64,000 nucleotides of DNA from Chlorobiota bacterium (GTDB lineage: Bacteria; Bacteroidota; Ignavibacteria; Kapaibacteriales; NICIL-2): contig JBGAVD010000002.1 of assembly GCA_044228285.1 (NCBI GenBank), positions 225,653 through 289,652 on the forward strand, written 5' to 3'. The notes beneath the pieces are model-generated. The model was not told the DNA's origin. It was given only the letters and a program-made list of their open reading frames with translations, and made no database searches. Positions within the stretch are counted from its first letter, which is position 1. Every line of letters starts with the position of its first letter. A program made the translations under genes and the position numbers. Positions 42,936 to 56,373 of this stretch are shown here, piece after piece.

Positions 42936-45557
42936 ATGACTAAAATAGAGACGACATTTGTACCAATAGTCCTGCAACTTGATCGGGCTTATAACTCTAT
43001 TGATGATTCGGATATAGCTGGATTTTATGACTTGTTGCACCTAGGAGAAATGATTTCTAAAATCATTACATTATCTCTAGTTGCCGCCATTAAGAGCGAT
43101 TCTTTGCGCACACGATACAGTTTGCACTACGAATTAGTCCGGGCAGACAGTATTGGAGTATGGGCCGATGTACTCAGTAGAACCCTTGTCGGCCCTGCTC
43201 AGCAGCTACTTGATCGTCAATATCGAGATAACGAACTTAAAGAATTAACAATAAAAGTAAGTAGTGGGTGGCAATACGAAGCGCTTCAAAACTTAAACAC
43301 AGCATTAAATATATTTAGACGTGCAGGAAGCCTCCCAAGTAAAGTCCAGTTTCGCAACTGGTTTGCTATGTTTGTCCAGTTGCGCAATGCTACCCGCGGA
43401 CATGGTGCTCCATCAGGTGAGCAGTGCGCGGCGGCAATTGTACCACTACATGAGTCGCTGAAATATATCATCGAGAATTATTGTCTCTTTGGAAGAGAGT
43501 GGGCTTATTTACATGAAAGCTATTCAAAGAAATACAGAGTAACGGCTCTAAACGGTTCATCTATTTACTTTGACCACCTAAGAAAGAGTAAGGAGTACAG
43601 CACACGATACAAAGATGGTTTGTACGTTTACTACTCAGATATTACGACAGTTGACTTGATCTACTCTTCGGTGGATGCTATAGACTTTCACTTCGCCAAT
43701 GGTTCATTTGGTAGTAAGTATTTTGAAGCAATATCGTATTCATCGAATAGTACGATTGAGTGTGAAAGCGAGAATTATAAAATTCCTGTAATGGAATTGC
43801 AACAAAGTACAACTGATGGCTCTCAAACATTAAGCATCGAAGGCAACGTATTTACAAACAAGCCTGTTACTCCACCAGATTTGATCGACAGGACGGATCT
43901 TGAAGCTAGACTTAATTATGTATTGAGCGAAGTAAATCGTTACCCAATTGTTACCCTGCACGGTCGCGGTGGAATTGGAAAGACTTCACTCGCGCTGAAA
44001 GCACTTGCCGAAATAGTTACAACATCTCGCTATGATATAGTTTTGTGGTTTAGTAGTCGCGATATTGACCTTTTGCCTGAAGGCATTAGGCATGTACAAC
44101 CTGCTATTCTTAATGTGGAAGACATTGCGACATCGTTTATCAAAATGACTGGATCTATCGGCTTAGTAAATGAAACTCCAGTCGAATTGTTGGCTCGTCA
44201 TATGAAATCAAGTGAACTAGGGAGAATACTGTTTGTGTTCGACAATTTCGAAACCGTTGACAACCCCGCTGAGTTGTTCGCATGGATCAATAGTCACATT
44301 GAGAATCCAAACAAAGCGCTGATAACATCTCGAATAAGCAGTACATTTGTTGCGGATATTCCGATTGAGGTTGCTGGAATGTCAGAGGAGGAATGTCGTA
44401 ACTTGATAGAAGCATCTACAAAAACTCTGAGCATTCCACTAGAAGAAGATGTAATTAGAAATATATTGGATCAGTCAGATGGTCACCCGTACATTGTGAA
44501 AATACTCTTGGGATATTTTGCACTTAATCCAGAGCGCAGAAATGTTGAACAGGTGCTCGCATCTAAAGATGAACTATTGAACGCCCTCTTCAGTCGAACT
44601 TATAATTCATTGACAGTTGCGGCAAGAAGAGTGTTCCTGACCCTTTGTAGCTGGCGGATGATCATTCCACAATTAGCATTGGAGGCGGTTCTCTTGCGAC
44701 CCGAAAACGAGTACATGGATGTTGAGGAGGCTATAGAAGAGCTTCGTAAATCATCTCTCATTGAAATAGTGTACAGTGATGATAGGTATCCATACATTTC
44801 TGTTCCTCTCTCAGCGTTTATCTTTGGAAAGAGGGAATTGCAAGTATCGTATATGCAGACTTCAGTCTTAGCAGACAGGGCGTTGTTGCAGGAATTTGGT
44901 ACTAACAGTGCAGGTGCGCAATATTATGACATTGAACAGCGCGTTCTACAAAAAATAAAGATGGTTGCACGTCACGCTTCTGGAGATGTACATGAACTTA
45001 ATAAACGGTTGCCAACTTTAGAATATATTGCGCGCAGATATAATAAAGCGTGGAAGTATTTAGCAGATATGATGTACGATGTGGGGGAAAACGTCCGTGC
45101 ACATCAATATATAACAGAGTATCTGAAGACACCGATTGATCCTGATGAATCATATATAGTATGGAACAAGGTTGCAAAATGGAGTGCGGAGTCCCATGAC
45201 GTATTAAATGAAGTAAACGCCATGAATCATATTTGCAAGTCGATAAGGGCATCATCTAAGGAAATATTCAATATTGCTAGGAAAATCGACCTGTATATTA
45301 GAGAAAAGAAAATGTCTATGGGCGATTCTTCGTATGAAATTCATATGGAGACAATCGTGCGTGATATAATTACAGTATGTGACAAGCACATATATCGCAC
45401 TGGTACTGCAGATGACTATCTTGTGCTAGGAGAGCTCTCTCTTGTTCTAGGCGATCATTCAAGGGCAAAAAATTACATAGAGAAGGGACTCGAAAGATTT
45501 CCAACTTCAGGTAGATTGAAGAAGGCATTATATGCGACTGGAGCCTACTCTGCATAG
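42936..45557 (+). CDS. STAND-class P-loop NTPase (NB-ARC/AP-ATPase-like; Avs-like architecture): ~330-aa uncharacterised N-terminal domain, NTPase core, C-terminal helical/TPR-like repeats
   Basis: Walker A VTLHGRGGIGKTSLAL (aa ~343-351), Walker B ILFVFDNFE and an hhhTSR sensor-like ALITSRI. The C-terminal ~450 aa are helical repeats. The N-terminal region contains LRNATRGHG (R150-x5-H156), which matches the HEPN R-x4-6-H motif. The gene is AT-rich relative to its neighbours. Confidence 0.7.
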   Translation: MTKIETTFVPIVLQLDRAYNSIDDSDIAGFYDLLHLGEMISKIITLSLVAAIKSDSLRTRYSLHYELVRADSIGVWADVLSRTLVGPAQQLLDRQYRDNELKELTIKVSSGWQYEALQNLNTALNIFRRAGSLPSKVQFRNWFAMFVQLRNATRGHGAPSGEQCAAAIVPLHESLKYIIENYCLFGREWAYLHESYSKKYRVTALNGSSIYFDHLRKSKEYSTRYKDGLYVYYSDITTVDLIYSSVDAIDFHFANGSFGSKYFEAISYSSNSTIECESENYKIPVMELQQSTTDGSQTLSIEGNVFTNKPVTPPDLIDRTDLEARLNYVLSEVNRYPIVTLHGRGGIGKTSLALKALAEIVTTSRYDIVLWFSSRDIDLLPEGIRHVQPAILNVEDIATSFIKMTGSIGLVNETPVELLARHMKSSELGRILFVFDNFETVDNPAELFAWINSHIENPNKALITSRISSTFVADIPIEVAGMSEEECRNLIEASTKTLSIPLEEDVIRNILDQSDGHPYIVKILLGYFALNPERRNVEQVLASKDELLNALFSRTYNSLTVAARRVFLTLCSWRMIIPQLALEAVLLRPENEYMDVEEAIEELRKSSLIEIVYSDDRYPYISVPLSAFIFGKRELQVSYMQTSVLADRALLQEFGTNSAGAQYYDIEQRVLQKIKMVARHASGDVHELNKRLPTLEYIARRYNKAWKYLADMMYDVGENVRAHQYITEYLKTPIDPDESYIVWNKVAKWSAESHDVLNEVNAMNHICKSIRASSKEIFNIARKIDLYIREKKMSMGDSSYEIHMETIVRDIITVCDKHIYRTGTADDYLVLGELSLVLGDHSRAKNYIEKGLERFPTSGRLKKALYATGAYSA

Positions 45558-45826: not shown

Positions 45827-48800
45827 ATGCCTCATACCAAAAGCGTCTACGAATCGTCTTCTGACTCTAGGACTAAGCATGTCCGCGAAGAGCACATCGA
45901 ATACGGGTTCATCGATAGACTCCAAGAGCTCAAGTACGAGTATCGCAAGGACATCCGTGACCGCGCCGCCCTCGAACACAACTTCCGCGAAAAGTTCGAA
46001 TCCCTAAATCAAGTCAAGTTGTCGGATGCGGAGTTCGCGCGCCTGCTTGACGAAATCGTCAGCAACGACGTCTTCACCGCCTCCAAGACCCTACGAGAGC
46101 GCAACACCTTCATGCGTGAAGATGGCACGCCTCTGAATTTCACACTTGTCAACATCAAAGACTGGTGCAAAAACACCTTCGAAGTGGTTAATCAGTTGCG
46201 CATGAACACCGCTAACAGCCACCACCGCTATGATGTCATGCTGCTTATTAATGGTGTGCCAGTAGTTCAGATTGAGTTGAAGACTTTGAGCATCAGTCCA
46301 CGCCGTGCCATGGAGCAAATTGTGGACTACAAGAATGATCCGGGCAATGGCTATTCGAAGACTCTGCTGTGTTTCTTGCAGCTTTTCATAGTAAGCAATC
46401 GCTCGGAAACGTGGTACTTCGCCAACAACAACGCCCGACACTTCAGTTTCAATGCGGAAGAGCATTTCTTGCCTATCTATCAGTTTGCCACGGAAGACAA
46501 CAAGAAGGTTACTCACCTCGACATCTACGCCGAGATCTTCCTTGCGAAGTGTTCACTAGCGCAGACCATTAGCCGTTATATGGTACTGGTTGCTTCCGAA
46601 CAGAAGCTGCTCATGATGCGACCCTACCAGGTCTATGCCGTGAAGCATATTGTGGAATGCATTCATACCAACTCCGGTAATGGCTTTGTGTGGCATACCA
46701 CGGGGAGCGGTAAGACCCTGACATCATTCAAAGCTTCAACCCTGCTGAAAGACAATCCGGATATCGAGAAGTGTCTGTTTGTAGTAGACCGCAAAGACCT
46801 CGACCGACAAACCCGCGAAGAATTCAATCGTTTTCAGGAAAACTGCGTCGAGGAGAACACCCATACGAGCACGCTGGTGTCGCGGCTGCTTTCTGACGAC
46901 TACGCCGACAAGGTGATCGTCACCACCATTCAAAAGCTAGGTCTGGCTTTGGATGAAAACTCCAAACGCACTGCTTCTCGTGGTGAACGTGGCGCTAAAA
47001 CCTACAAGGAGCTGCTCGAGCCTCTGCGCAACAAGCGCATTGCCTTCATTTTTGATGAGTGTCACCGCTCACAGTTTGGCGATAACCATCAGGCAATACG
47101 TGATTTCTTTCCCAAAGCGCAGCTTTTTGGTTTTACAGGGACGCCGATTTTTGAAGAAAATGCGAGCGCGCAGAAAATTGAGGGACAACAAGCGTCAATG
47201 CGCACGACGCTGGACCTCTTTGAAAAGCAGCTTCATGCTTATACCATTACCCATGCCATTGAGGACGGAAACGTCCTGCGCTTTCACATCGACTACTTTA
47301 AGCCTGAAGGGCTTAACGATAAACCAAAACCGGGTGAAGCATATGCCAAGAAGGCGGTCATTGAAGCCATTCTGAGCAAGCATGATGCGGCAACGGGTGG
47401 ACGTCGCTTCAACGCTGTTCTTGCCACCTCCTCAATCAACGATGCCATTGAATATCACGCATTGTTTAAATCCATCCAGGCGGAGAAGCTGGCAGCGGAT
47501 CCGGAATTCAAAGCCCTGAACATTGCCTGTGTGTTCTCACCTCCGGCAGATGGTGATGCGGATGTGCGTCAAATCCAAGAAGACTTACCTCAAGAGCAAG
47601 CCGACAATCGCGAGAATCCTGAGGGCAAGAAGGCTGCGCTCATGAGCATATTGGCTGACTACAATGCTCAATATGGCACGAACCACCGCATCTCGGAGTT
47701 CGACCTATACTATCAAGACGTGCAATCTCGTATCAAGGCTCAGCAGTGGCCGAACAATGATTATCCGGCAACACAGAAGATTGATGTCACCATCGTGGTG
47801 GATATGCTACTCACGGGTTTTGATTCCAAGTACCTGAACACGCTCTATGTAGATAAGAATCTCAAGCATCATGGACTTATCCAGGCATTCTCGCGCACGA
47901 ACCGTGTATTGAATGGCACGAAGCCTTACGGGAACATTCTTGATTTTCGTCAGCAACAAGATGCCGTCGATGCAGCCATAGCCTTGTTCTCAGGCGAGAA
48001 GTCGGCCGAGCAGGCGCGCGAGATCTGGTTGGTAGATGAAGCCAGCGTAGTGATTCGCAAGCTGGATACGGCGGTGCAGAAGTTGGATGAGTTTATGAAG
48101 TCGCAGGGACTCGACTGTGCGCCGCACGAAGTCTCGAACCTCAAGGGTGACGAAGCCCGCGCGGCATTCATTACGCATTACAAAGAAGTGCAACGTCTGC
48201 AAACGCAGTTGGATCAGTACACGGATTTGACGACGGAGAACCGCGAGGAGATGGAGAGCATCATTGCGCACGACGACATGCGTGCTTTCAAGGCGCAATA
48301 CCTCGAAACAGCGAAGAAACTTAAAGCCTTGCAGGGCAACGGAGATAGCGATGGCTCTGCGACAAACGTTGCCGAACAGCTCGATTTCGAATTTGTGCTC
48401 TTTGCTTCGGCGGTTGTAGATTACGACTACATCATGAGTCTCATTGCGAAGTTCTCCGCCAAGGAACCGGGTAAGTCCAAGATGAGTCGCGAAGCACTCA
48501 TTGGCCTGATCAGTTCCGACGCGAAGTTCATGAACGAGCGCGACGACATAGCCGAGTACATCAACACGCTCAAAGCCGGTGAAGGTCTGAGCGAAACAGA
48601 GATCCGCGAAGGCTATGTGCGTTTCAAGGCTGAGAAGGAAGCCAAAGAGCTGGCAAGTATTGCAGCCCGACACAAGCTCGCAGCGAAAGCCTTGAAGGAC
48701 TTTGTTGATGGCATTCTGAACCGCATGATATTCGATGGAGACCAACTGAGCGACCTCATGCAACCACAAGACCTCAGTTGGAAAGAACGCACACAAGCAG

Positions 48801-48886
48801 AACTAGCCCTTATGAACGACCTCATTCCACTTCTTCTTAAGCGCGCCCAAGGGCGTGAGATATCGGGGTTGAGTGCGTATGAGTAA
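45827..48886 (+). CDS. hsdR: Type I restriction enzyme R subunit (HsdR)
   Basis: HsdR N-terminal nuclease region; helicase motif I WHTTGSGKTLTSF; motif II FDECHRSQFG (DECH); SF2 helicase C-terminal motifs; 1019 aa. Confidence 0.95.
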   Translation: MPHTKSVYESSSDSRTKHVREEHIEYGFIDRLQELKYEYRKDIRDRAALEHNFREKFESLNQVKLSDAEFARLLDEIVSNDVFTASKTLRERNTFMREDGTPLNFTLVNIKDWCKNTFEVVNQLRMNTANSHHRYDVMLLINGVPVVQIELKTLSISPRRAMEQIVDYKNDPGNGYSKTLLCFLQLFIVSNRSETWYFANNNARHFSFNAEEHFLPIYQFATEDNKKVTHLDIYAEIFLAKCSLAQTISRYMVLVASEQKLLMMRPYQVYAVKHIVECIHTNSGNGFVWHTTGSGKTLTSFKASTLLKDNPDIEKCLFVVDRKDLDRQTREEFNRFQENCVEENTHTSTLVSRLLSDDYADKVIVTTIQKLGLALDENSKRTASRGERGAKTYKELLEPLRNKRIAFIFDECHRSQFGDNHQAIRDFFPKAQLFGFTGTPIFEENASAQKIEGQQASMRTTLDLFEKQLHAYTITHAIEDGNVLRFHIDYFKPEGLNDKPKPGEAYAKKAVIEAILSKHDAATGGRRFNAVLATSSINDAIEYHALFKSIQAEKLAADPEFKALNIACVFSPPADGDADVRQIQEDLPQEQADNRENPEGKKAALMSILADYNAQYGTNHRISEFDLYYQDVQSRIKAQQWPNNDYPATQKIDVTIVVDMLLTGFDSKYLNTLYVDKNLKHHGLIQAFSRTNRVLNGTKPYGNILDFRQQQDAVDAAIALFSGEKSAEQAREIWLVDEASVVIRKLDTAVQKLDEFMKSQGLDCAPHEVSNLKGDEARAAFITHYKEVQRLQTQLDQYTDLTTENREEMESIIAHDDMRAFKAQYLETAKKLKALQGNGDSDGSATNVAEQLDFEFVLFASAVVDYDYIMSLIAKFSAKEPGKSKMSREALIGLISSDAKFMNERDDIAEYINTLKAGEGLSETEIREGYVRFKAEKEAKELASIAARHKLAAKALKDFVDGILNRMIFDGDQLSDLMQPQDLSWKERTQAELALMNDLIPLLLKRAQGREISGLSAYE

Positions 48887-50156
48887 GGGTCTAGATTCTT
48901 CCAAAAATCGATCATCGACATTGCCGGTTCCAAAACTTCGATTTCCTCAGTTTAAAGCAATGCCCGGTTGGATTGACGTACCATTGATCGGCATCACAAA
49001 CAGAGAAGTAAAGTGGAGTTTTACAGGTGGTCCGTTCGGGTCTAATTTAAAGGCCTCCGACTACACCGATTCAGGTATACGTATAATCCAGTTGCAAAAT
49101 ATCGGAGATGGTATATTTCACGATGAATACCACGTCTATACATCGGTAGATAAAGCGGACGAGTTGCGAAGTTCTAATATCTATCCCGGCGAGATAATCA
49201 TGTCCAAAATGGGTGATCCAGTAGGACGCGCATGCTTTGTTCCTGTGGAAAGGGCAAGATATTTGATGTGCTCAGATGGTATTCGTGTGGTAGTTAACGA
49301 GTCTGAACACGATAAGTACTTCATTTACTCGCAAATCAACTCTCAGTCGTTTAGGAAAATCGTAGAAAGCAACGCCACAGGTTCAACTCGAAAACGCATC
49401 GGACTCGAGGAACTAAAAAAACTGTCTCTTGCGATACCTACTAAGGAGGAACAACAAAAAATCGCCCACTGCCTAAGTTCTCTGGACGAGCTGATAGCCG
49501 CCCAAGCCCGCAAAGTGGAGGCGCTCAAGAAACACAAAAAAGGTCTGATGCAACAGCTTTTCCCACGCGAAGGGGAGACAGTGCCGAGGTTGAGGTTTGA
49601 GGAGTTTAGGGGGAGTGGGGAGTGGGAGGTAAAATACTTGTTCAATGTATGTGATATGGGTGCCGGAAAGTTCGTTGCAGCTGCGGAGATATTCGAAATT
49701 TACGGTGCAGGTTGTTATCCGTGCTACGGCGGTAACGGTTTACGCGGGTATACTCAAACTTTCACCCACAGTGGTACATTCCCAATAGTTGGGCGTCAAG
49801 GAGCACTTTGTGGCAACGTTAAACTGGTTCAGGGCCATTTCCATGCTACAGAACATGCAGTAGTCGCAACTCCGAACTCAAATGTGGACGTCTATTGGTT
49901 GTATCACCAACTTGACAAAATGAACCTAAACAGGTATGCAACCGGGCAGGCGCAACCGGGCTTGTCAGTCGACACTATTGGAAAATTGCAGATCCGTGTA
50001 CCATATGCAATTGCGGAGCAGAGAAAAGTTGGCGAAACTCTTAATGCCATTGACGTTGCAATTTTCGAGTGCTCTCAAAAGATAGAATTATTTCATCGCT
50101 TTAAGAGCGGCTTGATGCAAGTCTTGTTCCCAAGTGCACCGATGGCAAAGGAGTAA
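48879..50156 (+). CDS. hsdS: Type I restriction-modification specificity subunit (HsdS), two target-recognition domains
   Basis: Two variable target-recognition domains separated by, and followed by, conserved coiled-coil repeats (LDELIAAQARKVEALKKHKKGLMQQLFP / IELFHRFKSGLMQVLFP). The ATG at 48879 overlaps the hsdR stop (ATGAGTAA). Confidence 0.9.
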   Translation: MSKGLDSSKNRSSTLPVPKLRFPQFKAMPGWIDVPLIGITNREVKWSFTGGPFGSNLKASDYTDSGIRIIQLQNIGDGIFHDEYHVYTSVDKADELRSSNIYPGEIIMSKMGDPVGRACFVPVERARYLMCSDGIRVVVNESEHDKYFIYSQINSQSFRKIVESNATGSTRKRIGLEELKKLSLAIPTKEEQQKIAHCLSSLDELIAAQARKVEALKKHKKGLMQQLFPREGETVPRLRFEEFRGSGEWEVKYLFNVCDMGAGKFVAAAEIFEIYGAGCYPCYGGNGLRGYTQTFTHSGTFPIVGRQGALCGNVKLVQGHFHATEHAVVATPNSNVDVYWLYHQLDKMNLNRYATGQAQPGLSVDTIGKLQIRVPYAIAEQRKVGETLNAIDVAIFECSQKIELFHRFKSGLMQVLFPSAPMAKE

Positions 50157-50195
50157 CTTACTTCCCAGTTGAACACGCCTCCACACAACAGCTTT

Positions 50196-51809
50196 ATGAC
50201 AGACACTAACCAAAAACAACTAGGCACAACTCTCTGGAAGATAGCCGATCAACTCCGCGGCGCCATGAACGCGGACGACTTCCGCGATTACATGCTGTCC
50301 TTCCTCTTCCTTCGCTACCTCTCCGACAACTACGAGACGGCGGCAAAGAAGGAACTGGGCAAGGACTACCCCTTGGTCGATGCAGATGAGCGCCGTGTGC
50401 CCCTAGCAAAGTGGTACGACGAAAATGCGAAGGACGTCGTCGAGTTCGAAAAACAGATGCGTCGCAAGGTGCATTATGTTATACAGCCGCTACACTTGTG
50501 GAACAGTATATCCAATCTGGCGCGTACGCAGGATGGTGAGCTGCTTCACACGCTCCAAGACGGCTTCAAGTACATTGAGACAGAGTCATTCGAGAGCACT
50601 TTCCAGGGGCTGTTCTCTGAGATCGACCTCAACTCTGCCAAGCTAGGGAAGAACTACACTGAACGCAACACCAAGCTTTGCGCCATCATCTCGGAAATTG
50701 CCAAAGGTCTGGCGGAATTCTCGACGGACATCGATGCGCTGGGCGATGCCTATGAGTACCTCATCGGACAATTCGCTGCCGGTTCCGGCAAGAAAGCGGG
50801 GGAATTCTATACGCCGCAGCAGATATCGGATATTTTGTCGGCCATTGTCACCCTCGATAGCCAAGAACCCAAAACCGGCACCAAGCAACGTCTGGAAAAC
50901 GTCCTCGACTTCGCCTGTGGCTCCGGCTCCTTGCTGCTCAACGTGCGCAAGCGCATGAAGAAGTCGGGCGGTACCATTGGCAAAATCTACGGTCAGGAAA
51001 AGAACATCACTACCTACAACCTCGCTCGCATGAACATGCTGCTGCATGGCGTGAAGGACAGCGAGTTTGAGATCTACCACGGCGATACTCTGCTCAATGA
51101 TTGGGACATGATGCGAGAGCTCAATCCTGCCAAAAAGCCTTCGTTCGACGCAATAGTGGCAAATCCACCCTTCAGTTACCGTTGGGATCCCAGCGAAAGC
51201 ATGGCAGATGATGTGCGTTTTAAGAGTCACGGAGTGGCCCCCAAATCCGCCGCTGACTTCGCCTTTTTGCTCCACGGTTTCCATTTCCTGAAGGATGAAG
51301 GCGTCATGGCCATCATTCTCCCGCACGGCGTCCTTTTCCGCGGCGGAGCCGAGGAACGCATCCGCACCAAGCTGCTCAAGGATGGTCATATTGATACCGT
51401 TATTGGTCTGCCTGCAAATCTATTCTACTCAACGGGGATTCCGGTTTGCATCCTTGTTCTCAAGAAGTGCAAGAAGTCTGACGACGTGTTGTTCATCAAT
51501 GCCGCCGAGCACTTCGAGAAAGGCAAACGTCAAAACCAGCTGAAGCCAGAACATATTGCCAAAATCGTAGACACCTATCAAAACCGCAGCGAAGAAGAAC
51601 GCTATGCTAAGCGCATATCCATGCAGCGTATTGAGGAAGAGGGGTACAACCTCAACATCTCACGCTATATCAGCACCGCCGTTGCCGAAGACGAGATCGA
51701 CTTAGCGGCTACGCATGTAGAGTTGGTGAAGATTGAGGCGGTGATTCAGGCGGCGAAGGGGAAGCACAATGCGTTTATGAGTGAGTTGGGGTTGGAGGAG
51801 TTGCCGTAG
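50196..51809 (+). CDS. hsdM: Type I restriction-modification N6-adenine DNA methyltransferase subunit (HsdM)
   Basis: HsdM N-terminal domain (LWKIADQLRG); SAM-binding motif I (LDFACGSGSLL); catalytic NPPF (IVANPPFSYRW). Start chosen at ATG 50196 by alignment to HsdM N-termini (the ORF tool used TTG 50169). Confidence 0.95.
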   Translation: MTDTNQKQLGTTLWKIADQLRGAMNADDFRDYMLSFLFLRYLSDNYETAAKKELGKDYPLVDADERRVPLAKWYDENAKDVVEFEKQMRRKVHYVIQPLHLWNSISNLARTQDGELLHTLQDGFKYIETESFESTFQGLFSEIDLNSAKLGKNYTERNTKLCAIISEIAKGLAEFSTDIDALGDAYEYLIGQFAAGSGKKAGEFYTPQQISDILSAIVTLDSQEPKTGTKQRLENVLDFACGSGSLLLNVRKRMKKSGGTIGKIYGQEKNITTYNLARMNMLLHGVKDSEFEIYHGDTLLNDWDMMRELNPAKKPSFDAIVANPPFSYRWDPSESMADDVRFKSHGVAPKSAADFAFLLHGFHFLKDEGVMAIILPHGVLFRGGAEERIRTKLLKDGHIDTVIGLPANLFYSTGIPVCILVLKKCKKSDDVLFINAAEHFEKGKRQNQLKPEHIAKIVDTYQNRSEEERYAKRISMQRIEEEGYNLNISRYISTAVAEDEIDLAATHVELVKIEAVIQAAKGKHNAFMSELGLEELP

Positions 51810-52242
51810 CCAATATGAGGCGTTAAGTGTTTTCGCAAATGATTAACTTGCTAATCGATCAACTATACAAAGATCATACTCTCAATAATGAAGCTTTGAC
51901 TGTTTAAGGAGTTATATATCGCTTCGCAACTGTTGTCATTGTATCCGATTGTTGCTCTGACTTAATTCGTGTCATTCGGTAGTATAGCATTTATAAAATG
52001 ACAACCGCTATGAGATAAAAGTCAGGGAGAATTCGTAGGACAGACACTGATGCCACAGTATGCCTAATGATTGGCAATCTAAGTATTAAATCGTGCATTT
52101 ATGTGACACATGAGTTGGTGATAGTATTAGTAGCTAGATTAGTTAAGTGCGGGAAATTATAGGGACTCAGCGCATGTACAATTTCATTAAGCCAAGTCGT
52201 AGTAATTTGCTTGCAGCAAATGGAGGTGTCGATAGCATAATA

Positions 52243-52419
52243 TATCACTAGTGTCCCGTTGTTTTAATACCACTGCGCCTGAAACTGTTGCCAGATCTTG
52301 CTTGCAGAGCTTTTTGGAAGCGCCACGATTTGAAATCTACGGTCTGACAAATGTGCCTCATTTGGCTTAGAATCGACGTTTTTTTATTCGTGTTTTAAAA
52401 CTGCGGGACACTAGTGATA
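52243..52419. repeat. 16-bp perfect inverted repeat pair (extends to ~24 bp with 2 mismatches) flanking ~145 bp; MITE-like element or long hairpin
   Basis: tatcactagtgtcccg at 52243-52258 and cgggacactagtgata at 52404-52419 are exact reverse complements. The adjoining ttgtttta / taaaactg extend the match. Confidence 0.6.
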
Positions 52420-52643
52420 ATGTATTGTAAATGACAATAAATGTTGGTCACCGGGTGTGTTACGGTCTAGAAACGTCGTATCGGGATTGTTAGATAGGCT
52501 AACACTTGAGAATGCCTTTACCCATGGCTTGTTGCTTTCATCACTTTTAATGAATCTAAATTACAATCCATTTAATTCATTTTTAATTGAAAATAGATCG
52601 TTTTTGTCTAAAAGAAGAGTATGTCAATCTATATAAAAATACG

Positions 52644-53867
52644 ATGAGTTGCATAATAATTTTAGGCGCTGGTGCGTCGATTCCTTTTTACAGTCCGAAG
52701 CTTACGACTGATTATTTGACTAAGGTCGTGTTAGATACGACCAAGTGGAATGATATTGTCATTAGATATAACAATTCAATCCCGGCACATGCTACCGGCG
52801 TCGACGTTTCTGTTGTGCAGCAGGTATTCCATAATGTTTCCACTGCACATCGTGACTATAACTTTGAACAGATATTAGAAATTGTCGATAAAATTAGTTC
52901 GTTTAGTATTGATCCGTACTCAGATTCGAAAGTACTACATGGGATTTTGCAATATTATAAAGCTCAGGTGTCTGTAAGCTCAGAACACGCATGGGATTGC
53001 GTTCCATTTCTCGCACGACAGATAATAGCAGAAGAGGTGTCTTCTTTGCATATGACGTGTAAGTCTTATGACTATACACGATTGACTCAATTGCAGGAGC
53101 AATTTTTAGCTTCTATTTGTGATGAAGGAGCGGTGAACATATTTACGCTTAATTACGACGAAATAATATTTGACGCCGTCGCTAAATTGGGATTCCAGTT
53201 GGGTTTTGACAGCAATGATCGCTTTGATATCCGTTCATTTATTGCCGCTGATAGAAGTATTTCATTTCCGCACGGTCATTCAAGGTTCAGTTATGATGAC
53301 TACGGTATGTTATATCATCATGGCAGCGAGGATGCAAATAAGTATAGATTAAGTCATATTGGATTAAGTAATATGTCGGAAACCAAGTACTTAACCGACA
53401 GTGCATACTCATATTCGTTCAACACTTTTATTTCAACAGGGCAACAGAAAGAGCCTACATTTGATGTTAATCCATTTGCTGCATATTATCAAAAATTTGC
53501 AAGTGATTGTTTAAAATCGAATAAAATAATTGTCGTCGGATATTCTTTTTCGGATTCGCATTTCAACAGGATGTTGTTGAACTATTTGAGCATTTCGTCT
53601 TCAAACAAAGTAATAATAATAGATTATATTCCTCAAGCTATCGACATACAAGCGGAGTTTGTAACATCAGGCAGTTTTATTAATAGAATGTTCAATCAGT
53701 TGGGAGTGAATTCGATTCCAATGGATGGACTAACGCATAAATATAAATATTATCAGGCTGAGCATGAGTTAAATATGGATGGATATGCAGAGATTTTGCC
53801 GCAAATAGTATTATACAAGAAGGGATACGATGCATATTTGAACGAGTTTAACTCAATTAAGGTGTGA
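52644..53867 (+). CDS. Stand-alone SIR2_2-family (ThsA/DSR-type SIR2-like) protein, putative NAD+-depleting defence effector
   Basis: Begins IIILGAGAS (Rossmann GAGxS). The family motifs TLNYD, HHGS and VVGYSFSDSHF are present in the expected order. Very AT-rich gene preceded by a 780-bp AT-rich spacer. Confidence 0.65.
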   Translation: MSCIIILGAGASIPFYSPKLTTDYLTKVVLDTTKWNDIVIRYNNSIPAHATGVDVSVVQQVFHNVSTAHRDYNFEQILEIVDKISSFSIDPYSDSKVLHGILQYYKAQVSVSSEHAWDCVPFLARQIIAEEVSSLHMTCKSYDYTRLTQLQEQFLASICDEGAVNIFTLNYDEIIFDAVAKLGFQLGFDSNDRFDIRSFIAADRSISFPHGHSRFSYDDYGMLYHHGSEDANKYRLSHIGLSNMSETKYLTDSAYSYSFNTFISTGQQKEPTFDVNPFAAYYQKFASDCLKSNKIIVVGYSFSDSHFNRMLLNYLSISSSNKVIIIDYIPQAIDIQAEFVTSGSFINRMFNQLGVNSIPMDGLTHKYKYYQAEHELNMDGYAEILPQIVLYKKGYDAYLNEFNSIKV

Positions 53868-54342
53868 TGACCTACTGCCTTATAATAATATGTGACCCAA
53901 GTTTAGATAAAGTGATAGGTTATATGGTTGCATTTATGACGCCATTTCTTTGGTCATTTTCTGTGCTGGTTTCAGTGTCAGTATTCGGACTTTTGGAAGC
54001 TCTCATGTTACCATTGATAAGTATGACCTTCCCCCATTGACAGCCACACGAAGTTAAGCTCTTGACGCCGTAGATTTGTTCAACTACAGTGCGGACTACA
54101 AATACGAGCAAGAATGCAGCAAGGCGCTTTTCTCTGCTATGGAGCCTACGAGACGTGTTACACAAACACGTGCACAAGACGCGTTCCCCAGTACCGGAGC
54201 TCGGAGTGAATTTGAAGTACGGATTCTCAGATTCGGAGGCATGTCCGCTGCTTTTAAGTAACACTAAAGAGTAACTTGATGTTCATAGCAGACGCCGAAG
54301 GCGGATGCATGAAGATAAATCTCTTGTTGGTCAGCGAAGGCA

Positions 54343-56373
54343 CTAGTCATCGCTTTCCTCAAAGGCACCCAAGACGTTATGGCGTGGGTTTTGTGGCCGG
54401 TATAGAAATTGTCCCGGATTAATATGTGCGGGGATGACATTGCTATAGATGCGAGTGCTTTGTACCTGACCTGGACTTTCTTTGTAATCTACCACAGCGC
54501 GAATTTTTGTTGAGAGTACACCGCCGTATAATGGTGCTTCGAATTCTACGAGGCGGTGGGGATCCAATGTTCGCTGCTTGTGAGCGTTTCCGCAAAGGTA
54601 GCTGTTGAATGTAAGACGCTCAATGTCTGCCCATTGTCCATCTTCGTTGATTGCTTGGAAAATCAGGGTAAAGCAATCTAACCACGAGTCGAATACAAGG
54701 CTTATGGCAGAGTCATTCACAAGGAGGAGTTTGAATCCTTTGTAATGTCGTTGCCAGGCAGCAGGCTGAATTGGCAGAAGAAGAATACTGGGCACTGATG
54801 GCCTGTATGCAAGCTTACCGTATAAGTGTTCTCTCTGCGGTACACGCTGCAGTGTAACAGAACTGTCGATGTCCACACTTCTGCGTCTTGATACAGAGTA
54901 GCAGGTGTTGTTCATATAGTCTATGTTCAGCTGTTTTCTACCGTCGCAAGAATCCACTAACTTTTCGCGCCACACGATGCGACCCTGGCAATCGATGTAA
55001 CAGAGAGTATCGCCAATACTAGCGGCGAGCGGAAAGCTGAGTTGTGGTCGGAGGTTTATGTCTTCGAATATCGGAGCGATGAACTGTCCACTCATGACAT
55101 TAAGTAAACCATAGTATTGATGGTTGCCACTATCGTTACCGTTGGTATACACTAAGAAACTGAGATAATCACCGTGGCGCCGGTAAACACTTGGTGAGAG
55201 AGAAGTGTAGTATAGGTTGCGGGGACTACGGACATTTCCTAGGGTATCAATCGCAAACCATTCATTATTGTGTTGTACGAACGCGATTCCTTGTAGGAAG
55301 GGCCCGTCTTCAGGGCACCTAGAGAACTGAGATAAAGCAATATCGCTGTAGCTGTCCTTGCCAATTTTGTGCCCACGCAGGTCGCGAAGGGTCCATGCTC
55401 CAGAAGTGTCCTTCGTAAAGAACCTACCACAACTACACGGGCTGATCTTCTCCCACTCTGTAGCCGAGCACAGTAAGTCGCCACTTTTTCCTATGATGCC
55501 TAAAGCCTCTTGTTGTGGTTTATAGCCATTACTAGTAGTTTTATAAGAGTACGTTTTGCGGATAGTGCAGTCTATAAGACCGTCGTTGAGGGACTCTCGA
55601 TCAAGCGCTACTTCCAGATCGCAATCTCCTCTGAAATGGAAGCACTCATATCCTGTAGAGTCGAGAACAACACTTGACCTTTGGTCATGACAAGAATCTT
55701 GAACGAAGCTTCGATAGGGGGCAGGAGTAGCAGAGGCATAGCCACTGTGAAACGTACCGATGAAACTGTAGAGTCCGAACGGAACGATAAAGCGTCCACT
55801 CGAGTCAATAATTGCCCATCTGGCTCGATCAAAGTCAGAGTGGTGCGGTTTTGTTGAGTCGAGAAACATACTACAGACGACGAAAAGACCTCTCTGGTTG
55901 TTTCGGATATAGCTAAAACAGGTATCCGTCAGAGCTCTGCCTTGCCGATTAACGATGCAGTAGCGGTCTGACTTTGTTCGAGCAATTGCACAGCCATGTA
56001 CGCCAAATGGCATTAGTTCTGCGAAGTTGTGCTGAAAGAGAATCTTGGCTTTGGTGTCGATGAAAAAGGGTTTGGAGGCGATATATACCTTGGCAATGCC
56101 GTGATCAAATGCTTCGGCAAAGTCGTAGCGGGCAGCAATGACGAGACGCCCATTCTCATCGATATATCCATAGCGTCCCCCAACACGCACAGCGGCTAAG
56201 CCCTCGCGAAAGGTCGAGGCACTATAGTACTTAGGATGTATAACGAGCTTCGCTGTGGAATCCATATAGCCCCACTTACCATTCTCGCGAATAGGAAAGA
56301 GTCTTGCATGTTGTCCGGAAATAGCGACCCCGCTGCTGATCAGTATTGCGGCGAAGATTAGTGCATGGCGCAT
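54343..56373 (-). CDS. WG-repeat (KWG / WG_beta_rep) containing secreted protein
   Basis: Signal peptide; repeated ...GKWGYMDSTAKLVIHPKY..., ...GRYGYIDENGRLVIAARYDF... units. Confidence 0.6.
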   Translation of the reverse strand: MRHALIFAAILISSGVAISGQHARLFPIRENGKWGYMDSTAKLVIHPKYYSASTFREGLAAVRVGGRYGYIDENGRLVIAARYDFAEAFDHGIAKVYIASKPFFIDTKAKILFQHNFAELMPFGVHGCAIARTKSDRYCIVNRQGRALTDTCFSYIRNNQRGLFVVCSMFLDSTKPHHSDFDRARWAIIDSSGRFIVPFGLYSFIGTFHSGYASATPAPYRSFVQDSCHDQRSSVVLDSTGYECFHFRGDCDLEVALDRESLNDGLIDCTIRKTYSYKTTSNGYKPQQEALGIIGKSGDLLCSATEWEKISPCSCGRFFTKDTSGAWTLRDLRGHKIGKDSYSDIALSQFSRCPEDGPFLQGIAFVQHNNEWFAIDTLGNVRSPRNLYYTSLSPSVYRRHGDYLSFLVYTNGNDSGNHQYYGLLNVMSGQFIAPIFEDINLRPQLSFPLAASIGDTLCYIDCQGRIVWREKLVDSCDGRKQLNIDYMNNTCYSVSRRRSVDIDSSVTLQRVPQREHLYGKLAYRPSVPSILLLPIQPAAWQRHYKGFKLLLVNDSAISLVFDSWLDCFTLIFQAINEDGQWADIERLTFNSYLCGNAHKQRTLDPHRLVEFEAPLYGGVLSTKIRAVVDYKESPGQVQSTRIYSNVIPAHINPGQFLYRPQNPRHNVLGAFEESDD

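Follow-up and report, generated by a model that had tools for sequence, protein, structure and literature searches.

SIR2 proteins in bacterial defence

Bacterial immunity has reused few effectors as widely as the SIR2-domain enzymes that hydrolyse NAD+ (NADases). To our knowledge, all of those that have been characterised obtain their trigger specificity either from a fused sensor, as in DSR2, Avs5 and the SLOG-containing ThsA, or from a partner such as HerA or a prokaryotic Argonaute (pAgo). Here we describe a gene of a Chlorobiota bacterium (assembly GCA_044228285.1, contig JBGAVD010000002.1) located at 52644..53867 (+, stop codon included) in a stretch of 64,000 nucleotides (contig positions 225,653 to 289,652) that we refer to as the window; coordinates are those of the window unless another locus is named. 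The gene encodes a SIR2_2-type protein of 407 residues, and our analysis supports its assignment as a stand-alone protein of the defence type. Comparisons of fold and of sequence both place it nearest to the SIR2 subunits encoded by SIR2-HerA systems, and, as far as sequence can define it, the family to which it belongs is a HerA-less sister group of those subunits.

The SIR2 subunits of the SIR2-HerA/Nezha systems of E. coli (PDB 8sub, 8suw and 8j4u) and Paenibacillus (PsSIR2, 8w9l) are approximately 380–415 residues long. PsSIR2 alone does not hydrolyse NAD+, its pocket being blocked by a small domain whose deletion (delta53-130) activates the enzyme, as do the substitutions F361A/Q362A; the C-terminal helix alpha15, which packs against the small domain, stabilises this auto-inhibited state, and N163, D165 and H212 are the putative catalytic residues (PMC11472057). 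The 407-residue protein is similar to these subunits in size, shares with them an Asn/Asp/His catalytic set and a GYSFxDxHxN motif, and likewise has a helical small domain inserted in the Rossmann fold together with a C-terminal helical region. It differs from them in that its N-terminal ~125 residues and its C-terminal 77 residues cannot be aligned with theirs by sequence, and in that its family has a conserved C-terminal LYKKGYxxFL module of its own.

Other described systems also offer points of comparison. The bAgaS protein of the long-B pAgo systems (BPAS) is, like the 407-residue protein, a separate SIR2_2 protein, and GbbAgaS is a toxic NADase when expressed alone, with the toxicity abolished by an N155A substitution of the motif Asn (PMC10620215). 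In contrast to BPAS, and to the SIR2-APAZ proteins of the short-pAgo SPARSA systems, the 407-residue protein has no APAZ region, and no gene for a Piwi/pAgo protein is present among the window open reading frames of at least 150 codons or at the family loci. ThsA, DSR1/DSR2 and Avs5 have the same order of SIR2_2 core motifs (Gly-rich loop, N-x-D, H-G, GxSxxD), but the architectures are different: unlike Thoeris ThsA, the 407-residue protein lacks a SLOG domain, and no TIR (ThsB) gene is present in the window; the DSR proteins are about 1000 residues long with a sensor region of ~700 residues, compared with 407 residues here and 77 beyond the core; and Avs5 (9jap) is a SIR2-STAND fusion, whereas the 407-residue protein is not fused to STAND. 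We found no sequence-level PDB match of the 407-residue protein to ThsA, DSR1/DSR2 or Avs5, and the structural matches reported by Foldseek are weak, with E-values of 1e-4 to 6e-4 and template-modelling (TM) scores of 0.31–0.37 (0.36–0.37 for ThsA, 0.31–0.34 for DSR2 and 0.36 for Avs5). The first-pass annotation of this DNA, made by a model from the sequence alone, had described the motifs as being of the ThsA/DSR type; the motif set is instead generic to SIR2_2 proteins and the TM scores are low, so that the 407-residue protein bears no particular likeness to ThsA or DSR.

The gene and its catalytic core

The open reading frame extends from 52587 to 53867 (+), and the ATG at 52644 gives a 407-residue product starting MSCIIILGAGAS. 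The N-termini of homologues in the family alignment agree with this start, so that the list of open reading frames and the homologues together establish that the gene is real and has the extent first proposed for it. The Pfam family SIR2_2 (PF13289) matches the protein at 24.8 bits, marginally above the gathering threshold of 24.5, and a precomputed PF13289 match is present in about half of the homologues. The classical sirtuin family PF02146 gives no match at E≤1 in the Pfam scan of the protein, and because there is no CxxC motif among its five cysteines we regard it as a SIR2_2 protein without the zinc ribbon of classical sirtuins. Assignment as a housekeeping sirtuin was considered and rejected on both of these grounds and because the TM scores to human SIRT2 and SIRT3 are only 0.32–0.34. 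The initial classification as a SIR2_2 protein of the defence kind thus holds: in addition to the missing zinc ribbon, the best structural matches are anti-phage SIR2 proteins, and the relatives are carried by prophages, by phages and by a conjugative element or lie within defence clusters.

Conservation was judged in an alignment of 45 homologues that extends down to 26% identity, and this shows a predicted NAD-binding Rossmann core with an intact Asn/Asp/His set, N170, D172 and H210, that is invariant throughout the family. The Gly-rich dinucleotide-binding loop that follows strand 1 has the sequence GAGAS (residues 8–12; 52665..52679, +), with G8 to S12 at least 90% conserved, and HerA-linked SIR2 proteins have GAGxS at the equivalent position. 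The catalytic Asn/Asp motif is TLNYD (residues 168–172; 53145..53159, +), in which N170, Y171 and D172 are invariant, and N170 and D172 align with N163 and D165 of PsSIR2 as well as with the invariant NYD of the HerA-linked proteins. The equivalent of the catalytic histidine is H210 in the motif FPHGH (residues 208–212; 53265..53279, +), where H210 and G211 are both invariant. In the match of the family profile to PsSIR2 (8w9l, E 2e-9) this pair aligns with H212-G213 (kLHGS), and the same register is repeated in profile alignments against the KLHGS of 31 HerA-linked SIR2 proteins and the YLHGS of a phage-borne relative; counted through the alignment, the published residues N163, D165 and H212 of PsSIR2 correspond to N170, D172 and H210. 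The GYSFxDxHxN motif of the SIR2_2 core is represented by VVGYSFSDSHF (residues 297–307; 53532..53564, +), which aligns with GYSFGDEHIN of the HerA-linked proteins; G299, S301 and D304 are invariant, and conservation is 90% or higher at Y300, F302, H306 and N308.

The first-pass annotation had named TLNYD, HHGS and VVGYSFSDSHF as the motifs of the protein. TLNYD and VVGYSFSDSHF are present and conserved, as described above; HHGS (residues 225–228; 53316..53327, +) is present yet not conserved, with homologues varying at these positions (for example HANS or HLSS), and the true His-Gly pair is H210-G211. A catalytic role for HHGS is rejected by the family alignment and by all three profile alignments, and its pairing with LHGS, which is seen only in a single-sequence phmmer comparison, is coincidental.

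Relationship to the SIR2-HerA subunits

Alignment of the family profile with that of the 31 HerA-linked SIR2 proteins using hhalign gives a probability of 99.1% and an E-value of 1.7e-18 across residues 127–330. The 407-residue protein nonetheless falls well outside the models that define the HerA-linked group: it scores 22.4 bits against the NCBIfam model for HerA-type SIR2 (NF042942), for which the cut-off is 500, and the members of its family score at most 37 bits against the PADLOC SIR2 models, compared with 168–539 bits for true HerA-linked SIR2 proteins. The best PADLOC matches are partial and are to Aga_SIR2 models (PDLC02414, 8e-18; PDLC02408, 9e-16). These matches are generic, because the HerA-linked SIR2 proteins match the Aga_SIR2 models as well or better (60–93 bits, versus 34–63 bits for the HerA-less family), and with no pAgo gene in the window or at the family loci we reject a special kinship with the Argonaute-associated SIR2 proteins.

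An AlphaFold2 model built from the 45-sequence alignment is a single compact body with a pLDDT of 94.1 and a pTM of 0.92. When this model was compared with the PDB using Foldseek, the top 33 matches were all SIR2 chains of SIR2-HerA/Nezha complexes, with E-values of approximately 1e-10, TM scores of 0.55–0.58 and alignments extending over the full ~400 residues; the next ranks are occupied by human SIRT2 and SIRT3, KomC, DSR2, ThsA and Avs5, at TM scores of 0.29–0.37. The BFVD library of viral structures contains nothing close to the model.

Recognisable SIR2 homology ends close to residue 330, the boundary being placed at 324 by Pfam, at 331–346 by PADLOC and at 330 by hhalign. The C-terminal 77 residues (331–407; 53634..53864, +) thus lie outside the sequence homology to the HerA-linked proteins, and they are of two kinds. 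Residues 371–407 form a terminal module with a mean conservation of 0.53, which is similar to that of the core, and have the motif NxxGYxxxxPQIxLYKKGYxxFL, in which N377, G380, G394, F398 and L399 are conserved; residues 331–370 are a variable linker with a mean conservation of 0.34, the most variable stretch of the protein. The LYKKGYxxFL motif at the C-terminus is common to the family and to a group of HerA-less SIR2 proteins encoded on phage contigs. The suggestion that the C-terminal ~150 residues constitute a novel sensor domain is not sustained, as the part that is not SIR2-like is only about 77 residues, the model is compact with its pTM of 0.92, and the Foldseek alignments to HerA-type chains of ~400 residues are full-length. 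Because of the high pTM and these full-length structural alignments, the tail of the modelled protein is best read as an integral element and not as an independent sensor domain. By analogy with PsSIR2, we infer that it may play a role comparable to that of helix alpha15, the terminal helix here comprising residues 395–401.

Absence of HerA and of a recurrent partner

Distant relatives with 22–28% identity were retrieved by means of the family motifs, and at the 57 of their loci that were examined, every one of the 31 same-strand genes of ~600–700 codons lying directly downstream encodes HerA (PF01935); HerA is present at 43 of 76 distant genome loci. A profile constructed from the HerA proteins of these distant loci, for which positive controls score 613–943 bits, has no match at E≤10 in the window (64 kb, all six frames) or in the loci of the close family (227 kb), a total of 291 kb and ~20 family loci. 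We consider the family to be HerA-less because the profile matches nothing at these loci while the positive controls are found. Pfam scans of all window open reading frames of at least 150 codons likewise identified no Piwi/pAgo, HerA (DUF87), TIR or SLOG, and together with the six-frame HerA search this confirms the initial observation that the window contains no SLOG, HerA, pAgo or TIR partner.

We also asked if any other gene accompanies members of the family, using loci taken from metagenomes, genomes and viral contigs and clustering the neighbouring open reading frames all-against-all across 16 of them. These 16 loci correspond to approximately 13 independent contexts, and apart from SIR2 itself there is no recurrent neighbour; the shared neighbours come only from copies of the same element (L009 and L098, L005 and L017, L011 and L012), and we therefore count ~13 independent contexts as having no recurrent partner. 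No Piwi-family gene is present in any of the family contexts. In the window, two small open reading frames immediately downstream of the gene, 53864-54040 (+, 58 aa) and 53920-54264 (-, 114 aa), were considered as possible partners and rejected, since they match no family and nothing corresponds to them at the other loci.

A search of 5.8 billion proteins recovered 62 homologues, which, with the exception of a small number of truncated entries, are 400–430 residues long. Few of them have a named source (Cellulophaga and Chitinophagaceae are among those that do), and these are annotated merely as "SIR2 family protein" or "hypothetical protein"; genome matches to the family include Paludibacter, Alistipes, Mediterranea and Ignavibacteriae. 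When 1.84 billion cluster representatives were searched exhaustively with HMMER, 440 matched at E≤0.001, with 54 below 1e-30, and among the 150 of these 440 that were listed nearly all are of single-domain size and none is fused to a larger architecture. There is no family match among cultured phage records, and plasmid records contain one distant match at 26% identity. Neither PADLOC-DB v2.0.0 (2023) nor NCBIfam release 20.0 has a member-level match for the HerA-less family, and the literature that we searched contains no description of a stand-alone SIR2 defence protein or of the HerA-less clade described here. The family of ~60 proteins probably represents the known kind of SIR2-domain NADase effector in a minimal form that has no partner and is related to the subunit of SIR2-HerA.

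A further group of HerA-less SIR2 proteins, 409 residues in length and thus nearly equal in size to the 407-residue protein, is encoded on ~30 uncultured viral contigs (L099-L132; for example L100, 5920-7149). These proteins are ~22% identical to the query and have YLHGS in place of FPHGH, and they match the family profile through the C-terminal YKKG[YF]xxF (hhalign probability 98.8%, E 4e-17). On these ~30 related contigs the SIR2 gene lies beside a HigB/HigA-like gene pair and phage structural genes.

Genomic contexts of the family

Defence clusters or mobile elements account for 11 of the 13 independent contexts. In the window, the SIR2 gene follows the Type I restriction-modification (R-M) genes hsdR, hsdS and hsdM after a gap of 835 bp, with a STAND gene of the NB-ARC/TPR type further upstream, and at another locus (L018) it is located 28 bp after a Type I hsdR gene. 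The contig L013 (1-15975) carries a dense defence island with genes for a DISARM-like helicase (1720 aa), a SNF2 helicase and an Eco57I-type methylase (1349 aa), followed after 4 bp by the SIR2 gene and then by GmrSD and McrBC; on a viral contig (L097) the SIR2 gene is found ~190 bp after genes for an Eco57I methylase and a ResIII helicase. The co-directional operon at L016 (32-9254) encodes, in order, an AAA_15/21 ATPase, a 224-residue protein without assignment, a Metallophos phosphoesterase, a 312-residue protein also without assignment, DO-GTPase2, DO-GTPase1 and GAP1-N1, with SIR2 last after a gap of 27 bp; this SIR2 protein (P0048) is 34% identical to the query, and the operon resembles a conflict system built around GTPases, with SIR2 as its effector.

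Members of the family are also found in a conjugative element, beside Gabija-like genes (L002), in a prophage, next to a gene for a helix-turn-helix repressor (L009/L098), and among myophage tail genes (L015). A HEPN gene is downstream of the SIR2 gene at L019 and a CHAT-TPR gene at L020, and at L008 there are SocA_Panacea and HicB (toxin-antitoxin) genes nearby, with a gene for a 397-residue AAA_16/AAA_22 ATPase ~5.4 kb upstream.

Two contexts are not clearly defensive, one being a polysaccharide locus (L005/L017) and the other containing genes for giant Big_2/fn3 proteins (L011/L012). At the polysaccharide locus a gene for a conserved 241-residue protein with no Pfam match is positioned 13 bp downstream of the SIR2 gene (L005, 3557-4282; L017, 1262-1987), in metagenome-assembled genomes labelled Chitinophagaceae and Paludibacter. 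This is the only tightly linked downstream gene that was met twice; the polysaccharide-synthesis genes that come next are identical, and the two loci look like one locus that has been copied.

Possible functions

We put at about 0.55 the probability that the 407-residue protein is a single-gene, self-contained and auto-inhibited NAD+-consuming SIR2_2 enzyme that serves as an anti-phage or anti-plasmid abortive-infection effector. The resting protein would be auto-inhibited in the manner of HerA-type SIR2, in which the helical small domain and the C-terminal helix block the NAD+ pocket, and an infection cue, either a phage protein or a change of oligomeric state, would relieve the inhibition. 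The cue might be sensed by the family-specific helical insert (~residues 20–160) together with the conserved C-terminal LYKKGYxxFL module; NAD+ would then be hydrolysed, and the infected cell would stop growing before the phage cycle is completed.

In favour of this interpretation are the invariant set of NAD+-site residues, the closeness in fold to a subunit of a known anti-phage NADase, the constant size of the homologues, the lack of HerA and of any recurrent neighbour, and the setting of most members in defence clusters or mobile elements; PsSIR2 provides a precedent for auto-inhibition, and GbbAgaS one for a SIR2_2 protein that is a toxic NADase by itself. Several observations weigh against it. 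As the nearest characterised relatives need HerA for their activation, a HerA-less SIR2 might by analogy be inactive or require an unlinked partner. The TM scores of 0.55–0.58 to the SIR2-HerA chains are accompanied by a root-mean-square deviation of 8–9 Å, which is a substantial structural divergence. Some SIR2 domains, moreover, work as ADP-ribosyltransferases, and a nuclease activity has been reported for the SIR2 of SIR2-HerA. Among the genomic contexts, two of ~13 are not obviously defensive (the polysaccharide and the Big_2/fn3 loci), and in five the SIR2 gene comes last, in the same direction, after a module based on a helicase, translocase or GTPase, which could mean coupling and not autonomy.

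These five contexts (the window, L018, L013, L097 and L016) are the principal argument for the main rival view, in which the protein would serve the motor system encoded next to it (Type I R-M, DISARM-like helicases, Eco57I-methylase/helicase or DO-GTPase/GAP1) as an accessory effector or a guard. As a plug-in NADase it would dock on this system or monitor it, and would fire once the system is engaged or once a phage anti-restriction protein inhibits it. There is a parallel in PrrC, which guards EcoprrI, and another in the SIR2 subunits that are driven by the HerA translocase, these nearest relatives being obligately paired with it. We consider such a role unlikely, however, as the upstream modules are of unrelated families and no neighbour family recurs, while no module of this sort accompanies the members carried by phages and prophages (L009, L015 and the L100 group), and defence genes cluster for reasons besides functional coupling. 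Moreover, the 835-bp gap between hsdM and the SIR2 gene in the window and the 13-point difference in GC content suggest that the latter was acquired separately and has its own promoter. The first-pass annotation had raised another form of dependence, a split Avs-like system in which the STAND protein encoded at 42936-45557 senses the phage and activates SIR2 in trans. Both genes belong to the same cluster and have a GC content below the average (40.7% and 36.8%), and fused SIR2-STAND proteins such as Avs5 exist; but 7 kb separates the two, a distance that takes in all three genes of a complete Type I R-M operon whose GC content is different, the 325-residue N-terminal region of the STAND protein could be its own effector, and the TM score to the SIR2 domain of Avs5 is low (0.36). 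An NB-ARC-type STAND gene is beside SIR2 in none of the ~12 other contexts, the nearest approach being the AAA_16/AAA_22 ATPase gene at L008, and we regard the split system as highly improbable.

It may also be that the protein has no part in defence, acting as an NAD-dependent ADP-ribosyltransferase or deacylase on a target of the cell or of a mobile element, or as an addiction toxin, or that it is an inert former SIR2-HerA subunit left behind after the loss of HerA. The two non-defensive contexts would fit this, as would the weak Pfam and NCBIfam scores and the inactivity of HerA-type SIR2 alone. Decay is difficult to reconcile with the strong purifying conservation both of the catalytic residues and of full length down to 26% identity, and an unrelated function accords poorly with the 11 of 13 contexts that are defence clusters or mobile elements and with the departures from classical sirtuins described above (no zinc ribbon, no classical SIR2 family match and low TM scores to SIRT2 and SIRT3); we consider both unlikely. 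A self-contained, auto-inhibited effector thus remains our preferred interpretation. We also advance, as a speculation of rather low probability, that the HerA-less clade is a portable NADase module, used either as a one-protein direct phage sensor of ~400 residues or as a docking guard of motor-based defences (Type I R-M, DISARM-like and DO-GTPase) by way of the helical insert and the LYKKGYxxFL module. If the guard option were true, the hsdRSM-SIR2 arrangement of the window would be a PrrC-like restriction back-up acting through NAD+ depletion.

If the partner-less clade of ~400-residue proteins is functional, it poses the questions of how a near-minimal SIR2 stays off and of how infection is recognised. 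Being sister to the SIR2 proteins that depend on HerA, the clade would provide a natural comparison for what HerA contributes. Because there is no member-level match in PADLOC-DB or NCBIfam at the releases given above, it would also add a new family to defence-annotation tools; there is, however, nothing unfamiliar in the class of enzyme, in its likely chemistry or in the logic of its genomic setting, and we judge the importance of the clade to be moderate.

The genomic neighbourhood in the window

The location of the gene in a defence island, as first proposed, is supported by the adjoining complete Type I R-M operon and the STAND gene. The operon (45827-51809, +) encodes HsdR (1019 aa), HsdS (427 aa) and HsdM (546 aa). 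The STAND gene (42936-45557, +; GC 40.7%) encodes a protein of 873 residues with NB-ARC at 326-545 and C-terminal TPRs; its 325-residue N-terminal region has no match to a Pfam family or to a PDB sequence, and the protein has no PADLOC match. This protein may represent an Avs-like type of defence that has yet to be classified and that has a new effector domain. On the other side, the next gene is convergent with SIR2, as had been noted, and encodes a WG-repeat protein (54343-56373, -).

The SIR2 gene has a GC content of 36.8% and the spacer upstream of it 36.9%, compared with 46.9% for the window and 50.1% for the R-M genes, which exceed the rest of the window and exceed the SIR2 cassette by 13 points; its earlier description as extremely AT-rich is therefore overstated. 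The low-GC block at ~51810-53900 (~2.1 kb) looks like a separately acquired cassette, as its GC content is 37% while that of the flanking R-M genes is 50%. The spacer itself (51810..52643; 835 bp) is non-coding, the longest open reading frame in it being 59 codons (52457-52636) with no family match. It was probably acquired together with the SIR2 gene, since the base composition is the same, and it presumably holds the SIR2 promoter.

The spacer contains a 28-nt inverted repeat with arms at 52243-52270 and 52392-52419 that are 89% complementary and separated by 121 nt, and the RNA of the segment 52235-52430 has a predicted folding energy of -64.9 kcal/mol, compared with -41.5 ± 3.9 for shuffled sequences (z = -6.0). 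No second copy of the repeat is present in the window or at other family loci, and an exact 25-mer from it has no match in metagenome contigs. We considered and rejected the idea that a regulatory element upstream of the gene is conserved, as neither the spacer nor its 28-nt repeat is conserved at other family loci. A search of 51700-54500 against Rfam gave no credible match, the sole hit being to Xist_exon1 inside the coding sequence at 23.5 bits, for which the gathering score is 50.

Signs of an FCB-group host (Bacteroidota/Ignavibacteriota-like) are seen elsewhere in the window, where the segment 22316-28655 carries a cluster resembling those for haem or cobalamin uptake (HmuY-like, TonB-dependent receptor, CbiX and PepSY_TM), and many of the proteins encoded in the window have C-terminal sorting domains of the type IX secretion system.

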